Positions 1-25,039 of a DNA stretch of 25,039 nucleotides are shown piece after piece (the first letter of the stretch is position 1; each line of letters starts with the position of its first letter). A program made the translations under genes and the position numbers. The notes beneath the pieces were generated by a model that saw nothing but the letters and a program-made list of their open reading frames with translations, did no database searches and was not told the DNA's origin. Origin of the DNA: a virus (Duplodnaviria; Caudoviricetes); the IMG/VR virus record IMGVR_UViG_3300033475_001786, positions 1 through 25,039 of that record. The stretch is one strand, 5' to 3'.

Positions 1-453
1 TTATGCTGCCGGTTTGTATTCATGCTTGTAATACCATTCTAACAGATATACCCCATCGCCCCACGACAATTTGCCATCGGCAGCAACTTCGGCTACGAGT
101 ATGGCCAGGTTATGCAGAAAGGCGCTCTGTGGATCGCCTCCGATACCCTGCAGCACCTTTATGGCGCACGATGTAATATCCGCGGGATCGGTTAAACCGG
201 CGCAACTGTCGGCCAGTTTAAGTTCGGCCAGGATAGCGGGCAGTTTGGCGCGAAGCAGGTCCTTCACCCTGTCGTCAATGTCGCCCGGGATGATGGCCGT
301 TAAAACATCTGCCGCAGGCGAATCAGTGAATTTTTTGATATTCTCGGTTACCAATACACCTATTTTTATGGCGGTTTTTAGTTCGGAAGGGATACCTTCA
401 AATAGTCTCTTTACTTCAGCCCAGATTTTTGATAGAAATGATTTTAAGCTCAT
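1..453 (-). CDS. Hypothetical 150-aa protein at the end of the late operon, possibly lysis- or membrane-associated
   Basis: Complete ORF, co-directional with the cluster, A-rich ATG context; amphipathic N-terminal helix (SFLSKIWAEVKRLF); lies next to the holin-like gene. No family recognised. Confidence 0.6.
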   Translation of the reverse strand: MSLKSFLSKIWAEVKRLFEGIPSELKTAIKIGVLVTENIKKFTDSPAADVLTAIIPGDIDDRVKDLLRAKLPAILAELKLADSCAGLTDPADITSCAIKVLQGIGGDPQSAFLHNLAILVAEVAADGKLSWGDGVYLLEWYYKHEYKPAA

Positions 454-526
454 GTTGTTTAGTTAATGATTTATGGAATTATTGATTTATTGAATGGTTG
501 ACTTGCAGTATGTAATTGAATTTTGA

Positions 527-796
527 TCAGTTTTTTTGGCGGAACGCAACTGTTCTTTCGCTTTTGATCTCATCTACCTGTTGCTGAAGAATTGAAACCT
601 CACTTTCCAAAACTTTCAGCCGCAGATCGTTTACCCGTGCGTCAGCTTCCTGTTTTTGGCGGATGTCGTGAAGATCACTCCTTAGCTGGAAATAGGTTGT
701 CATTACCGATGCTACGATACTGGCTGTGCTTACGACGGTAACGATGATGTTTTTGAGCGTGATGCCTTTGAGCTCACGGTGTTCGATGGTTGTCAT
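527..796 (-). CDS. Putative holin-like small membrane protein (1 TM helix plus coiled coil)
   Basis: 89 aa; hydrophobic segment IIVTVVSTASIVASVMTTYF, then a heptad-rich coiled coil and basic C-terminus; lies downstream of the fibre genes. Confidence 0.5.
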   Translation of the reverse strand: MTTIEHRELKGITLKNIIVTVVSTASIVASVMTTYFQLRSDLHDIRQKQEADARVNDLRLKVLESEVSILQQQVDEIKSERTVAFRQKN

Positions 797-881
797 GATG
801 GGTAGTGATTAAGGATAACCTTACTTAAAGCTGATGTGGAAAAGAAGATGCTTATTAGATTTCGTTTTATATATTAGCCGT

Positions 882-1754
882 ATGTTCAAAAGACTTCGCA
901 ACAGTTTTGCCTTTAGATTTCCTGTTTTGTTTTACAAAAATTTGTTAACTTATTTTTCGTCGGTCAACCCAATTAACAAACCTTTAGCATCATTTAATTA
1001 TGTGATCTTGTGTGGGTCAAGGCATTACCCTTTTTTGAAGCAAGTGTTAGGATCAATCCAAAAGCATTTTGAATTAATTCCCCATCTCTATGTTTTTACT
1101 GATTTTGGATTTCCAGATAGCAAATTACTAGACATAAAAGCCATTTACCCCGCGGAAAAGTTGACAATAATCTCTGCGGAAGAATGTTTGCAGTATTATC
1201 AAAAAAAAGGTAACGCTCTTATAAAGGAATTTGCTTCTAAAAATCCTATGGGATTAAAAATGGCGGCGGTAATGCAGGTCTTGGATTTGGGATTGCCGGT
1301 GCTGTATACAGACACAGATGTTTTATGGTTAAAAAACCCAATCAATGATATCAATTCATTAATTGAAAACGAACTAAATATTAATATGTCTTTTGATTAT
1401 CAAGCAGGCTATGACCTAAACTTAATTGAAAAAGCCAAATTAGACATAGTACTTAATCAGCCATATTATTGTGCTGGTATAATGCTTATTAATTATTTGA
1501 CTGAAGATCAAAAAACGGCAATTAATGAAATTTTGCCAGTGGCTATTTTGGAGTCAGGTCATTTGACTGAACAAACTATATTTGCTTACTTACAAAAACT
1601 CACGGGCTTATCAAAGATGTCAGAAGAAAAATATCTGCTATTTTATTCAGATCAATTTGATATTAGGCCTTCTTTTCCACCAAGCGGTCTTGCTAGACAT
1701 TATATCGGCCCTGTAAGGCATTTATTTTGGCGAGATGCTTTTTTTAACAATTAG
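882..1754 (+). CDS. GT-A fold glycosyltransferase (nucleotide-diphospho-sugar transferase/GT8-like)
   Basis: DxD motif in VLYTDTDVLWLK, YCAGIMLI segment, TEQT motif and C-terminal HYIG. ATG at 882 preferred over the ORF-track start at 834. AT-rich. Confidence 0.75.
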   Translation: MFKRLRNSFAFRFPVLFYKNLLTYFSSVNPINKPLASFNYVILCGSRHYPFLKQVLGSIQKHFELIPHLYVFTDFGFPDSKLLDIKAIYPAEKLTIISAEECLQYYQKKGNALIKEFASKNPMGLKMAAVMQVLDLGLPVLYTDTDVLWLKNPINDINSLIENELNINMSFDYQAGYDLNLIEKAKLDIVLNQPYYCAGIMLINYLTEDQKTAINEILPVAILESGHLTEQTIFAYLQKLTGLSKMSEEKYLLFYSDQFDIRPSFPPSGLARHYIGPVRHLFWRDAFFNN

Positions 1755-1772
1755 CCACATAGTCATTTTCAC

Positions 1773-3002
1773 TTGATGCAAGCGCCGAGAATTTTTAATC
1801 AAAATATTGAAATTCTAAGAGGGTTTGCTGCATTAATTGTCTTGATCAGCCACATAATATTTCATAATAATTATTTTAATCCTACTTACTTCCCGATATC
1901 TGGTTTACAGGGGTTCGATTCGCCGGCTCATTTCGCAGTGTTAATTTTTTTTCTATTGTCCGGATACGTTATTGGAATTAATCACAAAGAACCTTTAGTA
2001 GTATCGAGTATAGTTCTCTATTTAAAAAAAAGATTCGTTAGAATTTACCCAATTTATCTGGTAGCTATTATTTTGACTCTTTGCGTGGCTACTAATAAAA
2101 TTCCTGTTCCAATAGTTTTTTCGAATTTAACGCTTACCCAAAATATAGCGTATCCGGTGATTTGGGAAAATAATCCAGCTTGGTCTTTAAACTATGAAGC
2201 CTTATTTTATTTATTATTCATCCCTATTTCTTATTTTAAAATCAAACCTGCTTTAGCTTTTTTTTTCTTTTTGATTATTGGCATTTTCAATACTTACTTC
2301 CCAGTAAGCCAAATAGTAAGCGCTTACTGTTTCGGGTATTGCTTTTGGTTGGCAGGCTTATATGTCGCGTGGAATTTAAACGGGCCTGTAAAACAACGTC
2401 ATTTGTCCCCGATGTTATTTTATATTCTCGGCATAGGATACACGTTGCCATATCGCGGCTACATTATTTTATTATTAGAACGATTTAGATCTCCAATAAT
2501 GTTAAATGGGAAGTTTTGGTCGCAAATAATTGTTAATGCAAATGACTTATTACTCCTCCCTTATTGCTTTTTTTGTGTTCTTTTTTTTGCAGGCAGAGAT
2601 TTAAAGTATAAAAGAATTTTCTTTTTATTTCTACAGTTTTTACCAATTTATCTACTTTACGTATATGTTAAAAATGGCAATTTTGAAACGCGGTTTTATT
2701 TAGGAATTATTTTTTATGCAATAAGTATTATCGCTTTATTTATTAAATCGGATGAGTGGGTTATTAAAAAAATAGGGATGTGGTTAGGAAACATTTCTTA
2801 CGGGATTTATATCATCCATTTTCCGCTTTTAATTTTATTTGGTCAATTAAGTTTTTTGGGGAATGGTCCATTTAGCTATGCAGCTAAAGTAATTCTCTAT
2901 ATTTCTTCAACTTTTCTTATATCATGGACTTTAGAGAAAAAATTACAGCCAAAAATCAAACGACTTTTCTTTAGACGCCTTGATCTGAAAATATCAAAAT
3001 GA
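1773..3002 (+). CDS. Membrane-bound O-acyltransferase, acyltransferase_3 (OafA/YrhL) family
   Basis: Family motifs LRGFAALIVLISH, FFLLSGYVI, KRFVRIYPIY, WSLNYEALFY, LGNISYGIYIIHFP and LEKKL; many TM segments. Start is 1773 (TTG) or 1776 (ATG). Confidence 0.92.
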   Translation: MMQAPRIFNQNIEILRGFAALIVLISHIIFHNNYFNPTYFPISGLQGFDSPAHFAVLIFFLLSGYVIGINHKEPLVVSSIVLYLKKRFVRIYPIYLVAIILTLCVATNKIPVPIVFSNLTLTQNIAYPVIWENNPAWSLNYEALFYLLFIPISYFKIKPALAFFFFLIIGIFNTYFPVSQIVSAYCFGYCFWLAGLYVAWNLNGPVKQRHLSPMLFYILGIGYTLPYRGYIILLLERFRSPIMLNGKFWSQIIVNANDLLLLPYCFFCVLFFAGRDLKYKRIFFLFLQFLPIYLLYVYVKNGNFETRFYLGIIFYAISIIALFIKSDEWVIKKIGMWLGNISYGIYIIHFPLLILFGQLSFLGNGPFSYAAKVILYISSTFLISWTLEKKLQPKIKRLFFRRLDLKISK

Positions 3003-3791
3003 TTTTAAAACGTAGTTGCCTGAGGCTGGATTCGTATCCATATTAAATGGCAATGCATGATGATTTAGTCCGCTAAAATCTCTAATGCCAAGGCGAAGAT
3101 CGCTTCCATCTTGTAGAGCCGAAAAATCTAACATTTCGAATTTCTCGAATTTTAGCCAAACCAATAGACTTTCTGTCTCAAATGGATTATTTCCTATTCC
3201 TGCATTATAATTGGTGAGAAATTGTTCATTGGTTATGATTTTGTTATATAATCTAAACTCATCGATTGCCGCATTACTATTCTGGGTGGTATAAGTCCCT
3301 GGAGTAAAAAACTCAAATAATTGAATATTTGCTCCAGTTGATGAAAGTAGGTTTGATTTATTAATGTAACTGGGTATGGCGCTGGGGCTATAGAAAGAAG
3401 TGTCACCAGTCGCCATATTAAATGAGTGCGCTATAGCTCCTAGTCTTGTGTCGGACGATAAAGTATATGCTAATCCCGCACCTTGATCGGCTATATCAGA
3501 GCTAATTGTCAATGGAGAATTCGACCTTGAAATCATAATATTTTGTCCACCGACAGTTGCTAATCTAAATATCCCGCCTAAATCATTCACCGGGTCGGGA
3601 AATTTGACCCAGAATTCGACGGTGAACTGGTCGGGGATGGGTTTGCCTATCAGTCCTGGTACGGTCAGGTAATCGTCCACTCCGTCGGGAAATATGCCGT
3701 TATCAAACCCAAACGGTGCAGGCAGCGCCCTGCCGTGGCCCACGCCTTTGGGGCTTCGTATTTTGGGGTTTAAGCCGTTTCGTGATGCCAT
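2994..3791 (-). CDS. LamG/concanavalin A-like jelly-roll protein, candidate receptor-binding tail component
   Basis: FPDGVDDYL, FTVEFWVK and IDEFRLYNK are LamG-3-like motifs; lies directly downstream of the fibre genes. Confidence 0.75.
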   Translation of the reverse strand: MASRNGLNPKIRSPKGVGHGRALPAPFGFDNGIFPDGVDDYLTVPGLIGKPIPDQFTVEFWVKFPDPVNDLGGIFRLATVGGQNIMISRSNSPLTISSDIADQGAGLAYTLSSDTRLGAIAHSFNMATGDTSFYSPSAIPSYINKSNLLSSTGANIQLFEFFTPGTYTTQNSNAAIDEFRLYNKIITNEQFLTNYNAGIGNNPFETESLLVWLKFEKFEMLDFSALQDGSDLRLGIRDFSGLNHHALPFNMDTNPASGNYVLKSF

Positions 3792-3793
3792 AA

Positions 3794-4228
3794 TTATGCT
3801 GCGTATGATCCGCCCGATGTGGTTACGGTAATGGTTTCGCCTGATGAAAGTGCCGATAGCATAGCCATTTCCAGGTTCATGTTCAGGTTAAGGTCGATGA
3901 AAGGATTGCCGTCGCTGTCTATCTGCAGCCAGGGCAGGTTACCCCTGTTCAAGCCGGATACTATTGCAACAGACCCGTTAGTTCCGGCACCTGCCGGAAC
4001 AGTGATAACACCCAGCGGTGCAATTTCGCCGCTGACGGAATTGTGCAACTGCAGCAAAACGTAGTGCTGCGTGGCCGCCGTAGACGAAACAGCCATGAAA
4101 TTGATGCGGCTGGCCGGGTCGGCCGGGGCATAGATCTGTTTTGCGGTAGTACTGTCGGTATTGGTGAAGGATACCGGGCGCACACCGACGCCTTTTGTAA
4201 AGGCGACTATTTGATTATAATCAGACAT
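3794..4228 (-). CDS. Putative small virion/tail-fibre-associated beta protein
   Basis: 144 aa, rich in S/T/G/A with beta-strand patterning; 2-bp gap to the LamG gene. Confidence 0.55.
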   Translation of the reverse strand: MSDYNQIVAFTKGVGVRPVSFTNTDSTTAKQIYAPADPASRINFMAVSSTAATQHYVLLQLHNSVSGEIAPLGVITVPAGAGTNGSVAIVSGLNRGNLPWLQIDSDGNPFIDLNLNMNLEMAMLSALSSGETITVTTSGGSYAA

Positions 4229-4297
4229 GGGGGAATAATTATTGAATTATTGATTGGTTGAATTATTGAATTTCAGTCCGCGGACTTCGGAAGACGG

Positions 4298-5596
4298 TTA
4301 AGAATAATTAGTTTTCTTAAATATTTTGAGGATGACGTTATCCTGGTTAAGGGCAGCCACGTTTTCGGAAACCTCGTTAATGGCGCCTACCAGGTTGTTT
4401 TTGTTACCGGTAAGCAACGCGGTTTTATCGCCAACCACATCCACAAAAACTGCCTGGGTAACATAGTCGGCGCCGGGCGCCCCGCTTACCGAACTGCCGG
4501 TGGGTGTTACAAGCGCAAACCCTATCTCGATGGAATTGGCAGGCAATGATGGTTTTACCGGGTTAGGCGAGGCTGTTCCGGTAAGCGCCGAAACGGTGTT
4601 TGCATCATCGGCATATATCAGGTCTATGCGGGCATCGGTAATATCAGCGGTATCCAGCGTAAGGCTGGTGGCGGATGTGGTTTGATAGCTTACGCCGGCA
4701 ATGCGCCACTGCCCCGCTGTTACGCTTACCGATAAATCGGTGATAGAAACGCTGAGCCCTGTTATGATGCCATCCGGAGCTATTGCACCGGTTGCCGGCG
4801 GGTCTATCCATTCAGTATCAAAGTCGGCGCCGCTTTGCTTGGATAGTACCTGTCCTGCAGTGCCGCCTGTAGCTACTCCAGGTCCGGCGGAACCCGCGTC
4901 GCCGGCAGGACCGTCATCACCTGTGTCTCCCTTCGGGCCGGCAGGACCCGTGGCGCCATCTGCGCCAACCATACTTACGCCTGCCGGCCAAACGCCCCCG
5001 GCTTTTGGGCCGAAGAATGTGAAGGTATTGGTATTGATATAGAAATCGCCATCGGTACCGGTTGACAGGTTAGAAGGATTGGTTGTGCCATGCAGCACAG
5101 TTTTACCATCGGCACCGTTTGTGCCATTGGCGCCATTTGTTCCGGGAGGGCCCTGCGGGCCCGTTTGCATGGAAAATACCTGGCTCCACGCACCACCTGT
5201 TTTTTGGTAAAAGATACCCGTGCCGGTGTTAATATAGGTATCGTTATTACTGCCGCTCGATGATGAAGGTACGCCTAAACCGTACAATACGGTGCCATCG
5301 GCCGTGCCGCCTGAAGCAGGCAGGGCATAAGCTACCGCCCAGGCGCCGGAAACTTTTTGTGCAAAACTGCCTGCCGAAGTATTAACAAATACATCGCCGT
5401 TTTTGCCAACCGTATTTTGCGGCAGGGTGCCACCAAAAGAAACGTGCGCGCCCATATCCAGGTTGGAGCCAATAAATTCCAGCAAGGTTGATAAGGCGTA
5501 CTGGTAATCGCTGCCCCCGCTAACCAGTACTGAAAGATCGGACCCGCTGAGGGTTGATGCTACCGGTAATTCGCTTATTTTTTTATCTGTCGGCAT
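4298..5596 (-). CDS. Tail fibre protein with collagen-like Gly-X-Y repeats
   Basis: N-terminal DKKISELP motif; three G..P....G.(N/D)GD.(Y/F)(I/V)NT....F..K..G.W modules; GPQGPPGTNGANGTNGADG and GADGATGPAGPKGDTGDDGPAGDAG; C-terminal KNNLVGAINEV motif. ATG overlaps the upstream TAA (TAATG). Confidence 0.85.
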   Translation of the reverse strand: MPTDKKISELPVASTLSGSDLSVLVSGGSDYQYALSTLLEFIGSNLDMGAHVSFGGTLPQNTVGKNGDVFVNTSAGSFAQKVSGAWAVAYALPASGGTADGTVLYGLGVPSSSSGSNNDTYINTGTGIFYQKTGGAWSQVFSMQTGPQGPPGTNGANGTNGADGKTVLHGTTNPSNLSTGTDGDFYINTNTFTFFGPKAGGVWPAGVSMVGADGATGPAGPKGDTGDDGPAGDAGSAGPGVATGGTAGQVLSKQSGADFDTEWIDPPATGAIAPDGIITGLSVSITDLSVSVTAGQWRIAGVSYQTTSATSLTLDTADITDARIDLIYADDANTVSALTGTASPNPVKPSLPANSIEIGFALVTPTGSSVSGAPGADYVTQAVFVDVVGDKTALLTGNKNNLVGAINEVSENVAALNQDNVILKIFKKTNYS

Positions 5597-6219
5597 TAAT
5601 TTAATAATTGGTCGAGTGGTAAATAATTGCCGGCGTAATCATCGCCGGGATAGTTGAAGGCAGTTTTATCTACGCTGCGAATGCGCGGCCCTGCCTGACG
5701 GCTGCCCCTGTTTTTGGGGTTGTAATTCCATAAAGGGAAGTCGGCCTTGTTGTCGCGCAGAAATTTCTCCACCTCGTTGGCATGGGCGTTGGCTACGCTT
5801 CGGTGCTGCTGAACCAGTTTGGCTACATCCTGCGGTGAAAGGGCATCGGCGTTATCATGGTGTTTGATCACCGGCCCTGTGGCTGTATAATGTACCGCAT
5901 CGGCTTCGATAAAACGGGCAAAGGTGAAATATACCAGCATGGGCAGGATGCCTTCATACAGGATAACGTGGCCGTAGCGGTCGAGATATTCGCTGCCGTT
6001 CAGCAGGTCCTTATAAGGTTGCGGCGTTTCGTCCTTCAGCGAGCCGTCGGTATTGAAATACTGGATAAAGTCATAATAAAGCGCGTGGCCCAGAAATGGT
6101 TTCAGGTCGAGTTCCTGCGCTTTTTTGACAAAGAATTTGATCCGGTCGGACTTAACGTTTACGGACAGGTCCTCATAATTTTGGAATGTGATCTGGTCGA
6201 TCAGGTATGGCGTGTTCAT
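5596..6219 (-). CDS. Putative head-tail adaptor/connector (DUF6712-like)
   Basis: 207 aa, helical, with AQELDLKPFLGHALY motif resembling Bacteroidota phage proteins encoded after the portal; positional inference. Confidence 0.6.
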   Translation of the reverse strand: MNTPYLIDQITFQNYEDLSVNVKSDRIKFFVKKAQELDLKPFLGHALYYDFIQYFNTDGSLKDETPQPYKDLLNGSEYLDRYGHVILYEGILPMLVYFTFARFIEADAVHYTATGPVIKHHDNADALSPQDVAKLVQQHRSVANAHANEVEKFLRDNKADFPLWNYNPKNRGSRQAGPRIRSVDKTAFNYPGDDYAGNYLPLDQLLN

Positions 6220-6324: not shown

Positions 6325-7614
6325 CTATTTGCTAGCCGCCATCGCTTCCGCTTCGGTTTGTTTAAAGCCGTAGGCGTGTACCAGGGTGGCAATCTTGCTG
6401 GCCGGTGGCATGTTGGACAGCAATAATTGATTGATGCTATTGCCTGCGGTCATTCCCGCGTTATCATCCGCGACGGTTGTTGGAACGGGTTGAATGGCCC
6501 AGTTTCCTGAGGGGTTTAGGCTGATATAAAAATTGCCAAATATTTCCGCAAAGGCTTCAGATAGTTCCAGCCTGTCAGGGGCGGTGTTATCGTTAAATTC
6601 CCGAATGGCCTCCTTCTTTTCGCCGCCGTTACTTAGCCCGGATGACCTTTCAGCGTTGATCAGCTCCTTGGGTATGGAAAAGCCTTTTATAATACGAGCT
6701 TCGACTGATCTTTCGGTAGTTTCAAAAAGCTTATCGTTGTTTTGGATAGAATAAGGCTGAAACTGCGGTTTGGAGTTTTCATCATCATACTCTATTACGA
6801 TGATCTTTTGAGCGCTTTTCGCTCCCTGGAAAATCCCCAGGTCGCGCTCCAGTTGGGATGGTATATTGGAGTAATGCTGCTCGTCGCTGTCCGGCCTGCT
6901 GTTATCAGCTTCTTCCCGGCGGCTTTGCATAAAAAGCATCGTCGAAGGAAGGAATCCGGTTGTCACCTCGCGGTTGTTGAATATCTTGATGCCGGCTTCG
7001 GTCTCAAAATCTTCCCAAACGCTGTCAGCTTCTATCAGCGGGTAATCACCAACTTCGGGATTGAAATAATATAGCTGGCCCTTGTACTTTTCCCAACCGC
7101 CCGCATCAATTACCTGTTGCTTAATTGCGGCAGGGTCTGGGTTGTACTTATCCAAAAAAATGATCTTGCTGCGCGTGATGTTTTTCCAGGTTTTGCGGCC
7201 CCAATCCGGATAAAGCGCAAATTTGCCGGCAGTATCCGGGCTGTCCGTATCGCCCAGGCGGATGTCCTCGAACCTGACATAATTAACTGATGCAACCCTG
7301 TAGTTAGCATTATAATTGATATGGATGCCGAACCCGGTAAACAGCGCCTTATCGGTTGCTATAGCTTTCAGTAATTTTGCTAATGTGAGTCCGTGGGCAT
7401 TAATTATTTGTTTGCCCAATTCCTCGTGTTCAAAACCATTGCCACCTATGAATTTTGCCCTTTTGTTCCAGCAGTCTTTTGCCGTTGGCGATGATGATAC
7501 CAGTTCGAGCATGCGCTGCGGGTAGGCATTATCCATATCATAGTTTAGTATTCCGAAGGTTTGGTTAGGACGTACTAAAATGCGGCGTTCAATTTGTGGC
7601 AGATAGGTCTTCAT
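6325..7614 (-). CDS. Phage portal protein
   Basis: 429 aa; YDMDNAYPQ, AKFIGGNGF, GFLPSTML and the IIKGFSIP..L...SSGLSNG segment resemble Bacteroidota phage portals; size fits. Confidence 0.8.
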   Translation of the reverse strand: MKTYLPQIERRILVRPNQTFGILNYDMDNAYPQRMLELVSSSPTAKDCWNKRAKFIGGNGFEHEELGKQIINAHGLTLAKLLKAIATDKALFTGFGIHINYNANYRVASVNYVRFEDIRLGDTDSPDTAGKFALYPDWGRKTWKNITRSKIIFLDKYNPDPAAIKQQVIDAGGWEKYKGQLYYFNPEVGDYPLIEADSVWEDFETEAGIKIFNNREVTTGFLPSTMLFMQSRREEADNSRPDSDEQHYSNIPSQLERDLGIFQGAKSAQKIIVIEYDDENSKPQFQPYSIQNNDKLFETTERSVEARIIKGFSIPKELINAERSSGLSNGGEKKEAIREFNDNTAPDRLELSEAFAEIFGNFYISLNPSGNWAIQPVPTTVADDNAGMTAGNSINQLLLSNMPPASKIATLVHAYGFKQTEAEAMAASK

Positions 7615-7909
7615 TATTATTTTCTTTGGTTACACCGGTTTCTTTTTGGCTGATTTCACCGATTTGGTTGTTTGTGATTACACCGATTTCTGCCGGTGAT
7701 TTCACCGATTCAGAGGGTGGGTTACCTTGTGCGGTTGATGATTGGAAAGGCTGACGGCACCGGATAAACAGGCTTTTGATGTGAGGATATCTATCCAGGT
7801 ACCATTCGGCTTCAGCATCGGTCAGGTTTTCGTCGGTATGTACCGCAGGTGATTTTGGCGCGAACTGGTGTTTGCCAGGTTTAAGAATGTATTTCTTTTT
7901 GTTAGTCAT
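7589..7909 (-). CDS. Small hypothetical phage protein; C-terminal half encoded by a DNA repeat array
   Basis: Protein-like N-terminal ~50 aa (ENLTDAEAEWYLDRYPHIKSLF); overlaps the portal start by 26 bp. Confidence 0.6.
   Translation of the reverse strand: MTNKKKYILKPGKHQFAPKSPAVHTDENLTDAEAEWYLDRYPHIKSLFIRCRQPFQSSTAQGNPPSESVKSPAEIGVITNNQIGEISQKETGVTKENNNEDLSATN
7628..7710. repeat. Four copies of GATT(T/A)CACCGATT-like motif
   Basis: Copies start at 7628 (degenerate, GGTTACACCGGTT), 7652, 7676 and 7698; spacing 24, 24, 22. The same motif occurs at 11214 and 11401 (GATTGCACCGATT). Confidence 0.85.
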
Positions 7910-7993
7910 TGGTCATTAGTCATTTGGTCATTGATTTTTGTTTTTTAATTGATCATTAGCCCTTTAATGACTAATGACCTTTTGACTAATGAT
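7902..7993. repeat. Degenerate 7-mer tandem repeats (GTCATTG/GTCATTA) arranged as inverted arms
   Basis: ttagtcattggtcattagtcatttggtcattg on the left; complementary taatgactaatgacc...tgactaatga on the right. Confidence 0.85.
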
Positions 7994-11204: not shown

Positions 11205-11331
11205 GTTTTTGTTGATTGCACCGATTGTAATATTGATCACACCGATGGATTTGTATTGATTTTTGGTGGGTATTATATCCCGGGGTCAGGAAGATTTTTG
11301 GACTCGAAGTTGTTTGATCCGGGTTGCCGAT

Positions 11332-16507: not shown

Positions 16508-18577
16508 TTATCCCAGCTTCACCAATTCCACTTTGCATGGCTGGCCCTTCCGCCAGGCGTCGATCTTGTTAATATAGTAATATGCACCATCTTGCTGCAG
16601 GTATACGGGTATCATCAAATCCAGTTCTAAAATGTCGCGGGGTGCCAGCATAATATATCTGATCACCTTTTTGGTTTGTTTTAATACTTTTTCCAGTTCG
16701 GGATAATACTTTGTTTTTAGACCGGGTAGTTTCTGACCGTTTGCAGACCGCATGTCGCCAAAACACAAATTGAATTCGCCATCAGGTTTGTAAAAGTAAG
16801 GAGTGGATATCCAGTCGTTGACAACGATGTTATTTGCCTGGTTGCCATCGGTAAATGTTACGGATTTGCCGATGCTCATCAGGTTGAATTTCTGATCGAC
16901 CAGGATGCGCGGTTGAGTACTTAATGAAAAATCGTTCTCATCGCTTTTGGGGTCCTTCTTCAGTATCTGGCCTATTGAACCGCCATAAAATGGCCTGTTC
17001 AGCGTGGCGGCAAACTGGCTTTGGAACAGATCGGTCGAAGCGGGTAACGTGGTATCACCAATGCTGATCTGCGAATCGGCAAAGCCTTTTGGCAGTACAC
17101 CATCATCATCCTTATACTTCATATTGTTGACCTGGGCGTAGTTTCCCAATTTAAAGGATACCTGTTTGCCCTGGTCGACACATTTGGCTGTCCAGTCTTT
17201 GGCTAATGGGATATTATTAACTATGTCACGTAACGAATTGAAATGTATTGTGCGGTTGGCGTTATCGGTTTGGCAGATAACTCCGAACTTTTGCAAAATG
17301 TCTTTTAGCAGGTCCTTTTGTGAAATATCCGGAAAAATACGTTCGCACTGAATTTGTTGCCCGTATTGCACGCCCTGGGCCTTATTTTGAATGTTGAATG
17401 TAGCACCGCTGTGCAGGGTAAATGTAGCGCCGGTGTAGCCCAAAAATTCGTAGGTTATCCGGATTCCCTGACCCGGCTGCAGAACCTGGTCGAATGAAAC
17501 CGTTTGATTATTGAGAACGATGGTGGTTAAATTGCCCCGATCGGCATAGTCGACTATTGTTTCGGCAAGCTTCTCGCCTTCAGAATCGGACATTCCGGTG
17601 TTGTTATATAAACGTATCTGTATGGCTATTTTAGACGAATAGTCATGACTTCGGGATGGATTTGTGGCCGATAAAGAAATTCCGAAAGCAACAGAAGCTG
17701 TTACACTGGTGATTTCGGAAACAAAGTATCCGTTATGAGCGGCATCGTAATAATGGCTGGTATCTGAAACGATAAGGCTGAAGGGGATAGCGCCAATATT
17801 GTTAGCTGTAGTTGGGTGCGACCTGCTGAAATTCTGCCCGGTTTGTACCGTTACACTTTTATAGGTTACGTTGTTTTGAACATCCGTGCCGTGGTCGAAC
17901 GAATCATTAGCGAACTGGCATATTAGTTTGGGATATATGGGGTCCTGTAACAGTGAACCCGATCCTTTGTATCCGGCGGATTTAAGCAGCAGGCCGATTG
18001 CTGTTTTTATAAAAAAGCCAGGGCGCTGATACTGCACATCGATAGGCGTGGCATAATCAGAGTTGCTGATGAGGCCATAATCAACTACCGGCCATATCCA
18101 GCCATCGGTTTTTGTTTGGGATGTTGCCATGTTATGCACATTCCATATATGGTCGTAAGGCTGCCAGGCCAGTGTTTTGCCATAATTTGTCCATTGACTG
18201 GTGCTATCGCCCATATCGTACAATTTGCCATCAATAGCGTCGAAAAAATCGACATTGCCGGATAACAGAGTAATGTTTGCATTATTCTGTTCGATATTGG
18301 TGAGTTCGGCCAGGCCATAAGGAATGATCTCTAAACCGTCTTGTATTAATTTGGCCGGGTATTGTTGATAAGGGGCGTCAGTTGTGAAAGCAATGTCGTC
18401 TGGAAAACCCAATATTCGCCTGTTACGCTGAGTTAGCGGTAATTTGAACTGGTTACTGGTGTTGCCCTGCTGATTTTGTACCTCGGCCAGGTTGTTGATC
18501 TGGAAGGTTAGCGCGATAGGGGCATCGTCGTTCAGGTCGACGAGCTGATCGTTGATATATAGTTGGAGTTGGTTCAT
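16508..18577 (-). CDS. Putative tail tip/baseplate hub protein
   Basis: 689 aa; N-terminal LYINDQLVDL...QGNTSNQFKLPLT..N and C-terminal PVYLQQDGAYYYINKI...KVELVKL resemble Bacteroidota siphovirus tail proteins. Confidence 0.7.
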   Translation of the reverse strand: MNQLQLYINDQLVDLNDDAPIALTFQINNLAEVQNQQGNTSNQFKLPLTQRNRRILGFPDDIAFTTDAPYQQYPAKLIQDGLEIIPYGLAELTNIEQNNANITLLSGNVDFFDAIDGKLYDMGDSTSQWTNYGKTLAWQPYDHIWNVHNMATSQTKTDGWIWPVVDYGLISNSDYATPIDVQYQRPGFFIKTAIGLLLKSAGYKGSGSLLQDPIYPKLICQFANDSFDHGTDVQNNVTYKSVTVQTGQNFSRSHPTTANNIGAIPFSLIVSDTSHYYDAAHNGYFVSEITSVTASVAFGISLSATNPSRSHDYSSKIAIQIRLYNNTGMSDSEGEKLAETIVDYADRGNLTTIVLNNQTVSFDQVLQPGQGIRITYEFLGYTGATFTLHSGATFNIQNKAQGVQYGQQIQCERIFPDISQKDLLKDILQKFGVICQTDNANRTIHFNSLRDIVNNIPLAKDWTAKCVDQGKQVSFKLGNYAQVNNMKYKDDDGVLPKGFADSQISIGDTTLPASTDLFQSQFAATLNRPFYGGSIGQILKKDPKSDENDFSLSTQPRILVDQKFNLMSIGKSVTFTDGNQANNIVVNDWISTPYFYKPDGEFNLCFGDMRSANGQKLPGLKTKYYPELEKVLKQTKKVIRYIMLAPRDILELDLMIPVYLQQDGAYYYINKIDAWRKGQPCKVELVKLG

Positions 18578-18653
18578 GGTTCGTCATTGGTTCATTGGTC
18601 ATTAGCATCAGCGGGCAAAAACTTATGATGCCAATTAGTTGGACCTATAAAAA

Positions 18654-20729
18654 TCACTGCGTTTGTATATTGATGGATGGCATATTGAAAGTAATGCTGA
18701 AAGGTGCTTGCCCGTTTAACGTTTCGTACTCGCTATAGGTGGCTGTGTTGATGACGATGGTTTGCCATTTTACCGGATTTTTGTTGACGAGCATTTGAAC
18801 TTTGGGTGAGTACTTTATTGATTGCAGGCCTTTGATATCACTGACAGATAGGTCCTCGGCCATTACTTTTATTTTTTGCCCGGCATCTTTTCCTATTACT
18901 TCCTCAATGCCCTGTTGGCTTTCCCAGTCGGAAACGAAGTTTTTGATGATGGTGGCATTTTGTACATCGAGCGAAACTTCCTGGTTGTAAACAAAACGAT
19001 AGTAATTCCATGATCCGGTTAGTCCAATCCAGCGCAGGTAAACCGAATTTTCGTCTACAGCGTCATCAATGCGAATGGTTTGCGTTTGGGTAATGGCGTG
19101 GGCGATATCATCTTCATCGTTATATTTCAAGATAATTGTAAAGTAAAAAGCCTCTGGCGGAAATGACGAATTGATCAATAGCCTGTTAAGTCCAAGTTGT
19201 GCAGGCAGTGTGGTATCGGACTGTAGTTGCCCGGCGATAATAAATTTACTACCGTCCTGGTTGAGCAGCCACGATCCATCTTCGTTCAGTAAATCAGTTG
19301 ACTGTGCATCGCCGGTAAGCGGGTTCCGGTTAATATCCAGCGGGATGATCTCGCAATACACATCGCGGCCTAGCAGATATTCGCTATAAATAAACCCTAT
19401 GTCAAAGGGGTAACCGGCGGAAAGCGCGGGCTCTTCGAAATCGGTTATCCATTTTGCCAATGAGGAACCTTCCGTCACAGTACCAAACGGGACATAAGCT
19501 GCCAGGTTTCCGCCATATTTTTGTCCCAATTGTTTGGCTGCGTATACCACGTAGTACGGATCGGCAATAGTTATAAAATCGGATGTATATCCGTCTGTCG
19601 TACCATCGTCCCAGCCTTCGGCATATTGAATTTGGAAGCTTGCGCTTAAATTGCTGTCGCGATAATTGACCTGGGTATAGTCGCTGTCGTCTTTTGGTCG
19701 CAGCAGGCTTTGCAAAAAGTTCGAAAAGTCAGCCTTTACCAGGCCCGTATTGTCGGGCCGGTTGGTGGCGGTGATTGTTTGCTGCTGGCCAGAAAATGCA
19801 TCGTAATAGGTTATTTTGGTGGTGACCTTGTAATAAGGGCGGAGTCGGTTAATATTGATGAAGCCTGTGGCATCGCCGGTAAAAGCCGCATCGATCAGCA
19901 AACTATTGTTACCGGAAATACTGTTGACTTTAAAAATGCCCTGGTAGCCGCCAGCGTTTATATATACCATATCGCCCGGTGATAGGGTATAGCCAGTTGC
20001 CGGATCGGACAGGGCCGCATTGACCGATACGAGCGCCTTACCACTCGGGGTATCGGGCGAAACGTTGTTCACTTCAAAATCTTTGCGTTGATAAGTGAAG
20101 AAAATTGGATTAAAGGCCGCGTTCCATCTCGATATGTTTCCATTGCCAGGGTCAACGGATGGGTCCGACACCAGCAGATTGCTCAACACGGGAATAGTAA
20201 CTGAACGGGTAGCCGTGCAGCCTGCTGTATTGGCGTCTTTTACATCGAATTGATGCAACCCGCCGGTTAAGCCGCCAAATGTCGGCGATAACTGCCAGGT
20301 GGCGCCGGCATCGCTACTGTATTGAATGGGGAGGTAACTGGATGTGGCGGTAAGTGTCACTTGCGCATCGAGCGAGCCCGGTGATGATTCGGGCTTGTCT
20401 ACTGAAATATAATCCAGTACGAGGTCGCACCGGTTGACCGGCGGATCGGGGTCGGGAGCAGCTCTTACCGTGCCCGCCTGGAACTTAGTAAAAAAGAACG
20501 GGTCGCTGTCGCTCAATTCACCGTAATAAATTAATTGGGACTGACCGGCAATGCTGACGGAATTTTCGGTGACCGTTCCGTTGATATTCATATCATAGGC
20601 CACGGTAACGTTGTTGCCGTTGACAAGTTGACCGGTTGCAGCATCCCGGAGTTCAATAAAGACGGGGCCACTTACCTGTGTGCCGGTGACAGTTGCGGGG
20701 CCGTATGCTATTCTTGCTAAAATGGGCAT
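18654..20729 (-). CDS. Putative distal tail (Dit-like) structural protein with accessory domains
   Basis: 691 aa; C-terminal YLRWIGLTGSWNYYRF...SIKYSPKVQML motif; SprB-like repeat at about aa 101-180. Confidence 0.65.
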   Translation of the reverse strand: MPILARIAYGPATVTGTQVSGPVFIELRDAATGQLVNGNNVTVAYDMNINGTVTENSVSIAGQSQLIYYGELSDSDPFFFTKFQAGTVRAAPDPDPPVNRCDLVLDYISVDKPESSPGSLDAQVTLTATSSYLPIQYSSDAGATWQLSPTFGGLTGGLHQFDVKDANTAGCTATRSVTIPVLSNLLVSDPSVDPGNGNISRWNAAFNPIFFTYQRKDFEVNNVSPDTPSGKALVSVNAALSDPATGYTLSPGDMVYINAGGYQGIFKVNSISGNNSLLIDAAFTGDATGFININRLRPYYKVTTKITYYDAFSGQQQTITATNRPDNTGLVKADFSNFLQSLLRPKDDSDYTQVNYRDSNLSASFQIQYAEGWDDGTTDGYTSDFITIADPYYVVYAAKQLGQKYGGNLAAYVPFGTVTEGSSLAKWITDFEEPALSAGYPFDIGFIYSEYLLGRDVYCEIIPLDINRNPLTGDAQSTDLLNEDGSWLLNQDGSKFIIAGQLQSDTTLPAQLGLNRLLINSSFPPEAFYFTIILKYNDEDDIAHAITQTQTIRIDDAVDENSVYLRWIGLTGSWNYYRFVYNQEVSLDVQNATIIKNFVSDWESQQGIEEVIGKDAGQKIKVMAEDLSVSDIKGLQSIKYSPKVQMLVNKNPVKWQTIVINTATYSEYETLNGQAPFSITFNMPSINIQTQ

Positions 20730-20788: not shown

Positions 20789-21226
20789 TTAGTCAAGGTC
20801 AACTGCTTCTGCAATTAGTTGAGCGAGCGTATCGGCGATATTTTCGGCTACCGGCGTTAGACGCAGGTTGATGTTCTCGTCACTTAATGGTTCGGATAGT
20901 AAGCCGGGAACGCCTTTAAAGCCGTGTTTGTCGATTGACTTTTTAATGGCCCATGCTGCTTTGTTGGGAATACCTTTGGCCTGGCACCATTGTTTGATAC
21001 GTTCGATCATGGGTGGATCGCCTGTAGCGGCATTAGTGCCGGTTGGCCGGCGCCCCGTCTCCAAAGCTTCTATGTAAGCTGGCAGATTTAGTTGAGATCC
21101 ATTTCCATCACTCGTTATTGTAATCTGTTGCGAAGTTTGCCCTGTTGCATATCTCCCTTTTGCCTGCATGGCGTGGATGATGTCGGCTTTTAGAGATTCG
21201 AGAAGAGCGGTTAGGTCATTGGTCAT
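20789..21226 (-). CDS. Putative tail completion/neck protein (HK97 gp10-like)
   Basis: 145 aa; ATGQT...YIEALETGRRP...PPMIERIKQWCQAKGI...AWAIKKSIDKHG pattern. Confidence 0.6.
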   Translation of the reverse strand: MTNDLTALLESLKADIIHAMQAKGRYATGQTSQQITITSDGNGSQLNLPAYIEALETGRRPTGTNAATGDPPMIERIKQWCQAKGIPNKAAWAIKKSIDKHGFKGVPGLLSEPLSDENINLRLTPVAENIADTLAQLIAEAVDLD

Positions 21227-21279: not shown

Positions 21280-21726
21280 TTAAAAAGACTCATAGTACAT
21301 GGTAGATAAAGTAATGGTGAGGTTTACGCCCGTAGAGTTAACATCGAATTTGTTGTAAACAGGCAGGCATTTGGCCTTGTCGCCCGCTTTTATTTTGAAA
21401 TAACGGCCATCAGCTTCACGGTAGGTGGAGGCTTTGACGATGAATTCATTGGACATACGGAGTGCTTGATTTACATATATCTCATTATCAGAGGTATACT
21501 GATCGAAGTCTGTTTTGTACAGGAATTCCAGGTAAATTGAGAAACTATTGTCTACCGAACCGTTTATTTGCGGTGAAATCTCGATAGGCTGCAGGGGGTA
21601 CATAAAAACGCAAGGAAATGAGGCGTCGTCGGCAAGTTGGTTGATCTCGTTGACAGTACCGTAAATAAAGGTAGGTTGTTCGCTAAGCAATTGTGTTATT
21701 GCTTCAATTTGGTTACGGATGGGCAT
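21280..21726 (-). CDS. Putative tail terminator-like protein
   Basis: 148 aa, acidic, FPCVFM motif and C-terminal beta strand (TGVNLTITL); adjacent to the gp10-like gene. Positional inference. Confidence 0.5.
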   Translation of the reverse strand: MPIRNQIEAITQLLSEQPTFIYGTVNEINQLADDASFPCVFMYPLQPIEISPQINGSVDNSFSIYLEFLYKTDFDQYTSDNEIYVNQALRMSNEFIVKASTYREADGRYFKIKAGDKAKCLPVYNKFDVNSTGVNLTITLSTMYYESF

Positions 21727-21859: not shown

Positions 21860-22120
21860 CTATTTCTGTGCGTTGAGCAAGTCGGTGTACCTGCGCTGGT
21901 ATTCGGCTTCGGTTTTATTTAACAGCAGTTTGGTGAACATGCGCTCGTAAGGCAGGTTTAGAATATCCGCCCATTTAGTCACATCGCCACCGGCGAGGGA
22001 ATTGACAGTGTTTATGTATTTAAACTTTTCAAACGCCTGGATACCTGCTTTTTTCTCCAGTACAGTCGGAACCGTTGCGAGAAGGCGATCTTCTGTTTCA
22101 ATAAGTTGGGATAAGAGGTA
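21860..22120 (-). CDS. -1 frame extension of the tail assembly chaperone (gpGT-like), absent from the ORF track
   Basis: Hand translation gives 86 open codons: YLLSQLIETEDRLLATVPTVLEKKAGIQAFEKFKYINTVNSLAGGDVTKWADILNLPYERMFTKLLLNKTEAEYQRRYTDLLNAQK, with TAG at 21860-21862. It starts at the slippery run and has no early ATG. Confidence 0.8.
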   Translation of the reverse strand, partial: YLLSQLIETEDRLLATVPTVLEKKAGIQAFEKFKYINTVNSLAGGDVTKWADILNLPYERMFTKLLLNKTEAEYQRRYTDLLNAQK

Positions 22121-22704
22121 AAAAAATGGCGGGCTATGGGCAGCGCCTCCGTGACCCTTAGTTTTTTTACTTCCTCACAAAATTCTTCGGCCTCGTATTC
22201 GTCATATCTTTTGCCGGTAACGCGGCAAAAGAAATAATGCGCCAGCACAGAGCAGCATGCTTTCAGCGAGGGTTGAAAATGTTCCCGCCAGTCTTCGTCG
22301 CCGTAAAGACTAATGTGCTCGTTTATTTCGTCGGCAATAATATCACGTGCAGCCAGGAATGCGCCTGCGGGCTCGACAGAAAGATTACGGATAACATTTA
22401 CAACTACCTTTTTCTGGTCGATAGTAAAGGTTATTCTTGACGGGATAAGATCGCTGTCATACAAATATTTTATCTGGTTGGATAATGCCATCACATAGTT
22501 GCCAAATACAAGGAAGTCTTCAAAGTTCCTTACAGAATTGAGTTCTTCCTTCGCCACGCCCGAAAGAATACTTATGGCATCCAGGTCGTCCAGATAATGC
22601 TTTTCCTGCATGGCCATCATTTGACCCAGTGTCAGTTCGTTGAGCACAGTAGGTATGCGCACCAATATTTTACCATCGGTGGTTTTGAGTGTTTTTTCTA
22701 TCAT
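22012..22704 (-). CDS. Putative tail assembly chaperone (gpG-like, zero-frame product)
   Basis: 230 aa; IPTVLNELTLGQ N-terminus; ALPIARHFF marks the slip site. Confidence 0.7.
   Translation of the reverse strand: MIEKTLKTTDGKILVRIPTVLNELTLGQMMAMQEKHYLDDLDAISILSGVAKEELNSVRNFEDFLVFGNYVMALSNQIKYLYDSDLIPSRITFTIDQKKVVVNVIRNLSVEPAGAFLAARDIIADEINEHISLYGDEDWREHFQPSLKACCSVLAHYFFCRVTGKRYDEYEAEEFCEEVKKLRVTEALPIARHFFTSYPNLLKQKIAFSQRFRLYWRKKQVSRRLKSLNT
22120..22126 (-). other. Slippery heptamer T TTT TTT for -1 ribosomal frameshifting
   Basis: Minus strand reads CGC CAT TTT TTT ACC, with X XXY YYZ correctly phased in the zero frame. Confidence 0.75.
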
Positions 22705-22731: not shown

Positions 22732-22753
22732 TAAAGTATAATGGTTTGTTTAG

Positions 22754-23980
22754 TTACGTGGTTAGCATGTCTTTGATCATGTTGCCTGCGGAAGACGGAG
22801 ATACAGACGGCAATATGGTTTTAGACCGACCCAAGTTACTGATTTTTAATTTATTTAATGCAATATATCGTAACGGATCAATTAAATGGTTGCAGGTATC
22901 AACTGGTTCGTTAATAACGCGGCCGGAGTGCTCGGTTTTCCATTTATACCTGCTTAATTCGTTGCGAAGATTAGTGCTTCCCCGGGTGATGTTCAGTTTG
23001 TATCTCCTTAGTATATCAATGGAGTTTTTTACGCTGTCGCGGCCCTTCCTGGCCGGCGATATATGCCAGCCCAGCCGCCTTAATTCTTCTATCGATTTCG
23101 GTTCAGCACTATCTGCTATGATATCTGCACTTTTTCTAAGTCCGGTTTCAGTAAGTTTCTTAGCAATATCGGTATTGGTAAGCCCTTTTTCATATAAAAG
23201 CTCGTTTATCCATAGTTCGCCATTTTGCTTATACACCTCTATGCAGCCTGTTTCGTCGTTGGAGAAACCAAAGTCAAGCCCCGCGGCGATAAACCTGGCG
23301 CCCGTGGGTATGGTTTCGCAAATGTGCCAGTTGTCAAATACCAGCCCCTTAACCCGGCCCGTCATGCCACGGGCATATACGCGCCAGCGCTTTTCATCTT
23401 TTTCTTTCAGCGATTCGATCTTGTCCCTTACCGTTTGCCCGATAAAAGGATTATGGCGATGATCAGAAATAATGAGCTGAACGCCCGGGCCGCCCAGCAA
23501 ATTGTCGTGTACCCAAAATGCTGAATTAGGGTTGTAATCGATGTATATCCGTTTCCTGGTGCGCAATGCCAGTTCGCTGTATATTTCCCAGTTTATACCA
23601 TTTGCTTCATTCACAAAAAGGTAGTCGCGTTTACCTGATTTGGCGTCCTGGGCGTCGGCGTAGCTTTTAAATTCGATTATGGTGCCGTTATAAAACTTAA
23701 ATATGCGATCGGATTTATTATAAGCCCGTATTTTTTTTGCCAGTTGAACCGAACCCGAATAAATGCCAAGCGCATCGCGCAGCACACCCGATTTAAGATG
23801 AGGGATATCCTGCCCGGTTATGGTGATCACCTGGTTGGATCGTTGAGCGGCCAGGCAAAAAAGTACCTGCAGAATAGCATAGGTTTTGCCCGAGTTGGTA
23901 CCACCCTGGTTAACAATAGTATGTGCGCCGGTATAATAGTTTTCGATAAATACTGCAGAGGCCTTCCATCCCAGGTGCAT
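22754..23980 (-). CDS. terL: Terminase large subunit, PBSX/SPP1-like family
   Basis: Walker A QGGTNSGKT, Walker B YLFVNEA, motif III IDYNP, nuclease GLDFGFSND, ADSAEPKSIEE and NHLIDPLRY all appear intact. Confidence 0.95.
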   Translation of the reverse strand: MHLGWKASAVFIENYYTGAHTIVNQGGTNSGKTYAILQVLFCLAAQRSNQVITITGQDIPHLKSGVLRDALGIYSGSVQLAKKIRAYNKSDRIFKFYNGTIIEFKSYADAQDAKSGKRDYLFVNEANGINWEIYSELALRTRKRIYIDYNPNSAFWVHDNLLGGPGVQLIISDHRHNPFIGQTVRDKIESLKEKDEKRWRVYARGMTGRVKGLVFDNWHICETIPTGARFIAAGLDFGFSNDETGCIEVYKQNGELWINELLYEKGLTNTDIAKKLTETGLRKSADIIADSAEPKSIEELRRLGWHISPARKGRDSVKNSIDILRRYKLNITRGSTNLRNELSRYKWKTEHSGRVINEPVDTCNHLIDPLRYIALNKLKISNLGRSKTILPSVSPSSAGNMIKDMLTT

Positions 23981-24035
23981 ATTGATTTTATTATTTGATT
24001 TAACTAATTTTATTACGCCAACAATCTTTAATTAG

Positions 24036-24605
24036 ATGATACGTAAATTTTATTTTCTATTCCTGGCAATATCAGTTCCGATCTGCATGGCTTCGTGCGG
24101 GAAGAATGCCACACCCGGCCCGTCGCAGACAAACCTTATTGTAGGCAAGTGGACTCTTCAACAAGAGAAATATGTGCAATTTATTGATGCGATTGAGCGA
24201 CAGAATGTTACGATAAATACATCGGCTAACAATGTAGCCACCGTGCAGTTCAACAAAGACGGCACCTTTGCCAGCGCGAGCGCTTATACATCAGATCCGT
24301 CAACAAACCTTGGTGCCGGGCTTACCAGTGAATCGGCAACTACGCATGGTACTTACAGCTTCAGTAATAACTCGTTTCAGATGTCGGCGCCCTATGTCAC
24401 CGGGTTGGCAGACGGGACAGCCGGTTCCTACGGTTTTACAGGCAATGTGGCTATTCCAACCTATGCTGCTGTATCAAACTCGGTAGTGATAAATGAGCTG
24501 ACAGCCAACAGCCTAAAATTACATATCGAAGTTGTTTATACGTTAACGACTAACAACGTAGTGCAGACCTATAAAACCATAGGCGATTATAGCTACAACA
24601 AGTAA
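24036..24605 (+). CDS. Lipocalin-like lipoprotein inserted between terS and terL
   Basis: Lipobox CMASC; LIVGKWTL, VQFNKDGTF, GTYSF and INELTANSLKL fit Bacteroidota lipocalin-like domains. Confidence 0.8.
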   Translation: MIRKFYFLFLAISVPICMASCGKNATPGPSQTNLIVGKWTLQQEKYVQFIDAIERQNVTINTSANNVATVQFNKDGTFASASAYTSDPSTNLGAGLTSESATTHGTYSFSNNSFQMSAPYVTGLADGTAGSYGFTGNVAIPTYAAVSNSVVINELTANSLKLHIEVVYTLTTNNVVQTYKTIGDYSYNK

Positions 24606-24610
24606 TTTTA

Positions 24611-25039
24611 TTACAGGACTATGTCTTTTTCTGAGGCGGCAAGTTTGGGGCCATTCTCAAAAATCTCTATTTTAAGCGTGTCGTCAGTTTTGTCCTGCGA
24701 TTTTCCGGCGCTCTTTTCGCTATGCCCCATGGCTTTCAGTGCATATATGGCGCCGGTGGACGAGTGCAGCCTTGACTCGTAGATGGCCTCGATATATAAG
24801 CGGGCACGTTTTAGACGCGAGGCAAACTTGCCTTTGGCTTCGCGGGCTTCAAATTCTGCGAGGCTGTTAAAGCCAAGGTAGAATGCCAGGCCTGATAATG
24901 TTGGCGGGCCGGATGGTGCAATGGTATTATGGTTTGCTTTCTTTTCTTCTGCCGACGGGCTGCCACCGGCATAGCTGAAGTAACAAAGGATCAGGTCATC
25001 TAATTCCCTGGCCGATTTGAAAGGTCGTTTATAGCTCAT
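24611..25039 (-). CDS. terS: Terminase small subunit (DNA-packaging gp3-like)
   Basis: FKSARELDDLILCYF, PPTLSGLAFYLGFNS, LKRARLYIEAIYE and GAIYALK motifs; ATG lies at the window edge. Confidence 0.85.
   Translation of the reverse strand: MSYKRPFKSARELDDLILCYFSYAGGSPSAEEKKANHNTIAPSGPPTLSGLAFYLGFNSLAEFEAREAKGKFASRLKRARLYIEAIYESRLHSSTGAIYALKAMGHSEKSAGKSQDKTDDTLKIEIFENGPKLAASEKDIVL

Follow-up and report, generated by a model that had tools for sequence, protein, structure and literature searches.

The 25,039-nucleotide stretch analyzed here (the window; G000:C7:284588-309626, where G000 is the genome that carries it) covers an entire cluster of virus-derived head, packaging, and tail genes that is domesticated in the genus Mucilaginibacter. 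The cluster occupies a fixed site as a single copy, has a tree congruent with that of its hosts and low ratios of nonsynonymous to synonymous substitution rates (dN/dS), and lacks an att pair and a replication module. Homologies to Cellulophaga phage phi46:1 trace its origin to a temperate siphovirus module of that type, and its likely product is a DNA-packaging particle, which would act on nonimmune neighbors or transfer genes. The original prediction had been a domesticated phage-derived particle locus resembling a gene transfer agent (GTA).

Distribution, inheritance, and selection

Distribution was assessed in 183 Mucilaginibacter genomes that were at least 90% complete, including one unpublished genome (G002), which is not the sole basis of any conclusion. 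The large terminase TerL was found in 159 of these, with 133 matches full length by E-value (below 1e-150); at least two TerL matches (G087 and G159) came from other elements. The putative capsid gene was present in 103 genomes, with a second copy in only one, and was missing from 80, mostly via recent internal deletions. Among 20 TerL-negative genomes tested, 6 retained the small terminase gene terS, in all six next to cluster or flank genes. No close orthologs of the cluster were detected in 330 genomes of other genera of the family: the portal at 70 to 88% identity was confined to Mucilaginibacter, 6 of the 330 genomes had matches at 31 to 38%, and the putative capsid was found in 0 of 24 other families.

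A syntenic site, host-congruent trees, and low dN/dS had all been proposed as checks, and each was observed. Flank genes in common with G000 were present at the loci of 29 of 30 relatives, which had been chosen among genomes with TerL and capsid on long contigs. For the 27 genomes having all nine core genes and rpoB, the cluster and rpoB trees had 16 of 24 splits in common (shuffles: mean, 0.27; maximum, 3), 14 of 18 strong rpoB splits recurred in the cluster tree, and the Mantel r was 0.83. Median pairwise dN/dS ranged from 0.018 (capsid) to 0.17 over 16 to 37 nonindependent pairs, and dS in the cluster exceeded that of rpoB 3- to 5-fold but resembled that of neighboring host genes (nine pairs). 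In-alignment stops were found in only 4 of 277 core gene copies.

As originally noted, the window contained no integrase, repressor, or replication gene, and the flanks, which had been proposed as a check, agreed with this. Open reading frames across 45 kb on each side looked host type; Pfam searches of most of those in the 20 kb to the left and the 36 kb to the right identified a SusC/SusD sugar locus, an Xre/RES pair, dehydrogenases, and one S24 repressor. No att-like duplicate of at least 12 bases was detected within 45 kb, none of the five tyrosine recombinases of G000 lay on contig C7, and no second terminase or portal was found in the G000 genome. An active temperate prophage was rejected on the absence of an integrase, an att pair, and a replication module and on the single fixed site, which was not patchy at variable sites. 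A tailocin (R or F type) was likewise rejected, as head and packaging genes were present and constrained.

A tRNA-Leu(CAG)/tRNA-Leu(GAG) pair follows the final cluster gene, ~100 to 320 bp past window base 1, and is likely an ancient integration site; tRNA-Leu was found in 28 of 38 relatives' stretches. The orientation of this pair (L102:19667-19885) in G000 and G081 is opposite to that in most relatives. In G096, G008, and G017, other mobile DNA separates the cluster from its usual flank.

The spacers also differed from those of a phage module. The original prediction had described roomy spacers filled with host-type repeats, and this description held: intergenic spacers had a median of 59 bp in the cluster versus 4 bp in the phi46:1 module, and AT-rich intergenic repeats with an 8-base unit were located at window positions 455-509, 4231-4277, 8585-8689, 7898-7932, and 18569-18603. 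These repeats are host type, with 14 to 45 clusters genome-wide, and were enriched in the window: repeats with 30 to 45 clusters genome-wide had 3 to 4 matches there versus 0.2 to 0.3 expected per 25 kb. They occur as direct and inverted copies and constitute an uncharacterized host repeat family.

Divergent relatives of the cluster were present in a few genomes. G156 carries a second divergent copy (G156:C126; L378, L292, and L379), as seen also in L070; its terminase is a different one, it has additional small genes and an integrase nearby, and its capsid is 80 to 86% identical. Such copies are likely wild prophages related to the domesticated cluster. G087 (G087:C32, L262) carries a distant prophage whose TerL is closely related, and G159 (G159:C1; L288 and L289) carries divergent pieces 120 kb apart, both genomes being without the repressor described below; they may have split off before domestication.

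Recurrent precise deletions

Deletions within the cluster recurred at the same bases in many genomes. In 18 of the 23 short-terL genomes examined, the break fell right after codon 100 (two perhaps one base off), despite differing wobble bases. The partner ends were capsid codon 88 (five genomes), the last tape-measure codons (four), three spots in the 89-amino-acid (aa) gene (seven), the last gene (one), and another gene (one), and the joints were nearly always at CA|R, with 1090 CAR sites available downstream. On a 57-genome rpoB tree, 17 terL-100 genomes required 16 changes; the six capsid-88 remnants formed no clade and contained no stops, and the deletion remnants were undecayed and grouped with their hosts' relatives. 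Descent of the terL-100/capsid-88 fusion from one ancestral deletion was rejected (approximately unbiased test, p 1e-41), as was a laboratory artifact, the same junctions being present in metagenome contigs. An unbiased pattern scan, after removal of 25 duplicates and 2 short rows, identified 78 intact and 7 rearranged copies at the terL-100 base among 85 distinct metagenome contigs and 30 intact and 5 rearranged copies among 35 viral contigs, these being overlapping collections. Further hot spots joined the 230-aa gene to the 89-aa gene (eight genomes) or were located at two sites in the 148-aa gene (five and four) and in the 691-aa gene (three), and many deletions took out the envelope cassette described below as well.

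Microhomology or homeology was rejected as the basis of the terL-100 deletions, similarity being not above that of random site pairs (six site pairs scored); some p230/p89 and p148/p89 junctions showed 2 to 8 nt of microhomology by eye. Inspection of the consensus contexts by eye revealed no Chi-like, Xer/dif-like, insertion sequence-end, or splice-like motif beyond CA|R. One exact junction pattern for a reciprocal excision circle had no match in viral or metagenome contigs, which is a weak test. Among public runs, none with RNA was listed for genomes holding the cluster, and contigs from four runs, which cannot exclude such joints, showed none at the hot spots. Ku is present, and the median deletion sizes of 10.7, 13.6, and ~22 kb could correspond to one or two headfuls measured from a pac site. 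Speculatively, the simplest account of the fixed break at terL codon 100 is the scar of an enzymatic cut, perhaps made at a relic pac site by the terminase and then repaired by Ku/LigD end joining. In G122, a 10 kb inversion from the 691-aa gene to the capsid gene (G122:C1:4851258-4862332, L286) appears reciprocal about one shared base.

The tape-measure cassette

The tape measure-like protein ranged from 385 to 1022 aa in length; compared with that of G000, median identity was 12 to 24% over residues 1 to 500 and 64 to 94% over residues 551 to 766. Directly 5' of its gene, 68 of 77 loci carried one to five genes for single-transmembrane (TM) proteins, lipoproteins, or exported proteins, two or more such envelope-type genes were present in 30 loci, and orphan tape-measure fragments were present in 13. 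The similarity of the adjacent gene tracked that of the variable tape-measure segments (r, 0.29 to 0.34) more than that of ClpP (r, 0.05). G179 and L074 have identical ClpP proteins, yet their tape measures and upstream genes both differ; G023 and L074 have differing ClpP proteins, yet their tape measures and upstream genes are both alike. The hypervariable N terminus of the tape measure has been exchanged between species along with the envelope-protein genes just 5' of it.

The main groups of upstream envelope proteins matched no Pfam family. HK97 gp15 is described as encoded before the tape measure gene and as blocking DNA injection (PMC3594210), and by analogy the upstream envelope proteins may be exclusion or immunity factors. 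Kin-immune killing or exclusion would explain the cassette no less well than gene transfer would.

Control and lysis functions

A candidate control switch, composed of an HTH-S24 repressor gene and a divergently oriented 136-aa gene of no family, was located ~23 kb past the right end of the window (G000:C7:332039-333595; L380:2440-3996). The repressor is 76 to 91% identical across the genus and in relatives is usually a few kilobases from terS; its distance from terL is mostly 2 to 12 kb and is 24 kb in G000. It was detected (E below 1e-60) in 32 of 37 genus genomes and in 0 of 263 others, and the five genus genomes without it also lacked the canonical cluster. The original prediction had named overexpression of the 76-aa gene as one means of induction; its product matched no family, and the repressor, 23 kb upstream, was judged the better handle. 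In 11 of 31 loci, an Xre/RES toxin-antitoxin pair (L103:190-1218; window 25202-26230) lies directly 5' of terS; it may stabilize or gate the locus. A 58-base two-copy repeat 5' of the ClpP gene (window 11332-11389 and 11488-11545), with 5 to 10 similar sites genome-wide, is a possible promoter or operator.

The lysozyme gene that precedes the 89-aa gene in G081, the closest relative of G000, is missing from G000, and a glycosyltransferase gene and an acyltransferase gene occupy its place. The gene set is therefore not complete, because the endolysin encoded by relatives before 527-796 is missing. Of the apparently intact head, packaging, and tail set originally described, the genes named were present and uninterrupted; the statement that the structural genes had stayed intact is incomplete, given the capsid losses in 80 genomes and the missing endolysin of G000.

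Gene content

The uninterrupted set runs on the minus strand from terS through terL, the genes for 230-, 148-, and 145-aa proteins, and those for two large putative tail-tip proteins to the tape measure-like gene, followed by the genes for the 76-aa protein, the ClpP protease, the putative capsid, the putative tail tube, the portal, and the DUF6712 protein and then by those for the fiber, the 144-aa protein, the LamG protein, the 89-aa single-TM protein, and the 150-aa protein (Table 1). This order was nearly constant across the chosen relatives' loci. Envelope genes lay at four sites, as originally noted: 24036 (between terS and terL), 15061/15789, 11602, and 834/1773. Since the 145-aa neck-like gene was detected in so few loci, most species seem to manage without it. 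Counts of acyltransferase-3 genes near the fiber gene disagreed (12 of 80 loci by blastp versus 4 of 80 by tblastn in trimmed loci) and so give weak support only. Signal peptidase I genes (nine loci) and Fic-domain genes (five loci) recur between the 76-aa gene and the ClpP gene, e.g., at L046:7057-8154 and L039:5997-7037.

TerL matched TIGR01547 (PBSX family) with an E-value of 7e-22, under the model's cut-off, and is probably a headful-type terminase. The capsid and tail tube assignments are putative and indirect. The putative capsid and the family of phi46:1 virion protein gp03 both fall in phrog_11320, and hhalign with the phi46:1 virion protein family gave 53% over 138 columns; comparison with PDB and phage sequences gave no match. 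A beta-domain inside the putative capsid (residues ~165 to 268) is well predicted, with weak fold matches to phage fiber/FCCH-like domains, and is missing, judged by length, from the shorter phi46:1 family. It is possibly a built-in decoration.

Table 1. Features of the cluster in window coordinates
Feature	Positions	Strand	Matches and occurrence
Small terminase, terS	24611-25039	-	GP3_package PF16677 E 1e-5 (below cut-off); phrog_606 E 2e-10
Lipocalin-like exported protein, variable cargo between terS and terL	24036-24605	+	PF13648 weak; 4/31 loci
Large terminase TerL, PBSX/SPP1-like	22754-23980	-	Terminase_3/3C; 30% to phi46:1 TerL
Recurrent fixed deletion end of relatives, after terL codon 100; intact in G000	23680/23681	-	
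Conserved 230-aa protein, likely tail assembly chaperone by position	22012-22704	-	31/31 loci
Second deletion hot spot	near codon 191 of 230-aa gene (22012-22704)	-	
Conserved 148-aa protein, likely tail terminator/neck	21280-21726	-	31/31 loci
Deletion hot spots	near codons 27 and 64 of 148-aa gene (21280-21726)	-	
145-aa neck-like protein	20789-21226	-	phrog_31246 weak; detected in 4/31 loci
691-aa putative tail-tip protein	18654-20729	-	31/31 loci; weak match to phi46:1 virion gp19
689-aa putative tail-tip protein	16508-18577	-	phrog_33698; profile E 2e-14 to phi46:1 virion gp20
Exported protein, family F5, variable cassette 5' of tape measure gene	15789-16412	-	
Lipoprotein, family F14, same cassette as F5	15061-15723	+	
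Tape measure-like protein; residues 1-500 hypervariable, 551-766 conserved	12600-14900	-	
Recurrent deletion end, last tape-measure codons	12642/12643	-	
Conserved 76-aa protein	12310-12540	-	No family match; 31/31 loci; dN/dS 0.02
Exported protein, variable cargo site	11602-12297	+	
ClpP-type head maturation protease/scaffold	10014-11240	-	PF00574; phrog_94 E 2e-59
Putative major capsid protein, inserted beta-domain ~165-268	8694-9905	-	phrog_11320
Recurrent deletion end within putative capsid gene	9645/9646	-	
Putative tail tube protein	7993-8577	-	Atlas lead 0.86 to tail-tube clusters; phi46:1 gp05 E 1e-6
106-aa protein, conserved in N-terminal half	7589-7909	-	20/31 loci
Portal	6325-7614	-	phrog_11226 E 4e-80; 27% to phi46:1 portal
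DUF6712 protein, likely head-tail adaptor	5596-6219	-	PF20459; phi46:1 virion gp08 E 2e-10
Fiber/adhesin module, highly variable between species	2994-5596	-	
Collagen-repeat fiber	4298-5596	-	
144-aa protein of fiber module	3794-4228	-	
LamG protein of fiber module	2994-3791	-	
Acyltransferase-3, likely surface modification	1773-3002	+	PF01757
Glycosyltransferase, likely surface modification	834-1754	+	PF03407
89-aa single-TM protein, holin-like by position	527-796	-	Commonest right end of relatives' deletions
150-aa protein, last gene of cluster	1-453	-	

Possible functions of the particle

The reading that we favor, at not quite an even chance, is an inducible PBSX-like particle that would package headfuls of host DNA and would damage or kill neighbors without the matching envelope immunity proteins. 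DNA damage would inactivate the S24 repressor, expected from its family to be RecA cleavable, and the operon would thereby be induced to build a noncontractile tailed particle. The terminase would fill this particle with chromosome by headfuls, which is all that it could package because nothing replicates or excises the locus. The fibers would select the target, and the tape measure would enter its envelope; in kin, the cognate upstream membrane proteins and lipoproteins would block its entry in the manner of HK97 gp15, which occupies the equivalent position. Upstream envelope genes would accumulate as orphan immunity. Deletion strains would be nonproducers escaping lysis: producers would die, so that nonproducers would constantly arise, and nonproducer lineages would not last, since the remnants are undecayed. 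A broader proposal, in which a polymorphic tape-measure weapon or key with cognate immunity arrays is coupled to enzyme-made, homology-free excision from one terL base that silences the locus permanently, with producers and nonproducers arising in every clade, is tentative and on balance unlikely.

Several findings weigh against this PBSX-like reading. The capsid is the most constrained protein, fitting a DNA-delivery role, and no toxin or enzyme domain was found by Pfam in 20 tape measures or in the scanned F1, F3, F4, and F5 proteins. Nine of the 77 loci have no envelope-type gene 5' of the tape measure, several pairs have the same tape-measure type and different adjacent genes, the ClpP control in the covariation analysis was an ungapped comparison, and the covariation may be plain physical linkage. 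No lysozyme homolog was found in G000 at E<=0.01, other endolysin families not having been searched genome-wide, and a close lysozyme homolog was present in only 29 of the 51 loci that extend to the holin-like gene. Three of the 18 strong rpoB splits contradict strong cluster splits, the headful-length check of the pac idea used nearest relatives that were only 67 to 87% identical, structure models of the putative capsid were of low confidence (pLDDT, 44 and 54), and a viral fold search for an HK97 fold in it gave nothing at E<=0.001.

A true GTA, delivering random chromosomal fragments to kin with the tape-measure/envelope cassette as a key and lock for entry and not a weapon, is possible, if on the doubtful side. 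The evidence for domestication is identical under this reading, the head, portal, and terminase are under the strongest constraint, the lack of a toxin domain fits, and recurrent loss resembles the pseudogenized "cheater" GTA clusters described for alphaproteobacteria (PMC10883770). However, gp15-like exclusion genes beside the tape measure would bar delivery to clone-mates, the orphan arrays and variable fibers resemble an arms race, and the fixed terL break hints at a retained pac site. A PBSX-like antagonistic particle is slightly favored over a true GTA, and killing and transfer are not exclusive. An antiphage role without an offensive particle, in which exclusion genes and structural proteins or empty particles interfere with or decoy phi46:1-like phages, would account for the envelope-gene arrays and acyltransferases at moron-like positions, and related integrase-bearing prophages do exist in the genus (the second copy in G156); it is improbable, as the entire assembly line including the terminase is under purifying selection and the envelope cassette is also lost in many deletions.

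Less probable again is a nonautonomous selfish element that packages itself in situ from a terL pac site or via a helper phage, its spread being largely confined to single species. In its favor are the fixed terL break, a 24 kb length that would fit a phi46:1-size head of 35 kb, some tree conflict, and cassette exchange, but there is one copy at one site with no att pair, divergence equals that of the host neighbors, and packaging starting in terL would leave terS behind. An ancient cryptic prophage decaying without function is largely refuted and very improbable: the 80 genomes without a capsid gene, the many internal deletions, and the missing endolysin of G000 suggest decay, whereas dN/dS of 0.02 to 0.17 over saturating dS, the scarcity of stops, and undecayed remnants grouping with their hosts' relatives contradict it.

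Comparison with known systems

The closest annotated module is that of Cellulophaga phage phi46:1 (KC821611), with homologous TerL, portal, adaptor, ClpP, tube-like, and tail-tip proteins at 20 to 30% identity, capsid families in the same phrog, and, within each of two blocks, a matching gene order. In contrast, the two blocks are in swapped order in the cluster, envelope genes are inserted, and the integrases, helix-turn-helix regulator, primase/helicase, and compact spacing of the phage are absent. Like PBSX of Bacillus subtilis, the cluster is a defective resident prophage that has a repressor and keeps its head and a PBSX-family, probably headful-type terminase (TIGR01547 below cut-off). 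PBSX kills noncarriers after DNA damage. Its tail is contractile, whereas family profile scans of the window proteins gave no sheath match, and the host of the cluster is diderm. We know of no tape-measure cassette or precise deletion hot spots in PBSX. PBSX is described as packaging 13.4 kb chromosomal fragments (PMC12946183).

As in GTAs, the cluster combines virus-derived head, packaging, and tail genes with long vertical inheritance under purifying selection and has no linked replication, integration, or excision genes; vertical inheritance, lack of autonomous replication, and recurrent pseudogenization are reported for alphaproteobacterial GTAs (RcGTA and CcGTA), BaGTA, and FpGTA (PMC10883770, PMC12946183). 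The cluster differs in phage ancestry and phylum and in its co-located S24 repressor and exclusion-like arrays. The envelope protein gene just before the tape measure gene recalls HK97 gp15 and superinfection-exclusion morons (PMC3594210), and the tandem variable genes with orphan fragments recall polymorphic toxin-immunity arrays; no sequence family match to either and no toxin domain were detected, and variability affects the N-terminal two-thirds of the tape measure, with the array upstream.

Characterized GTA-like elements are described as few and mostly alphaproteobacterial (PMC12946183). A literature search covering few subscription journals, on GTA-like loci of Mucilaginibacter, Sphingobacteriaceae, and Bacteroidota and on prophage terminases of Mucilaginibacter, found no description of this cluster, and genome-wide prophage or GTA surveys could list the locus in supplementary tables. 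The cluster is a real domesticated phage-particle locus, apparently undescribed so far, and a variant of the GTA/PBSX kind that is assigned to neither class. The homology-free deletions at the same base in many independent lineages point to some cutting or recombination activity. As Mucilaginibacter can be cultured and intact and deleted loci pair up naturally in it, a single genus would allow three questions to be tested: whether gene transfer or killing selects for domesticated phage particles, whether a polymorphic effector matched by immunity can take the form of a tape measure, and by what route cheaters emerge.

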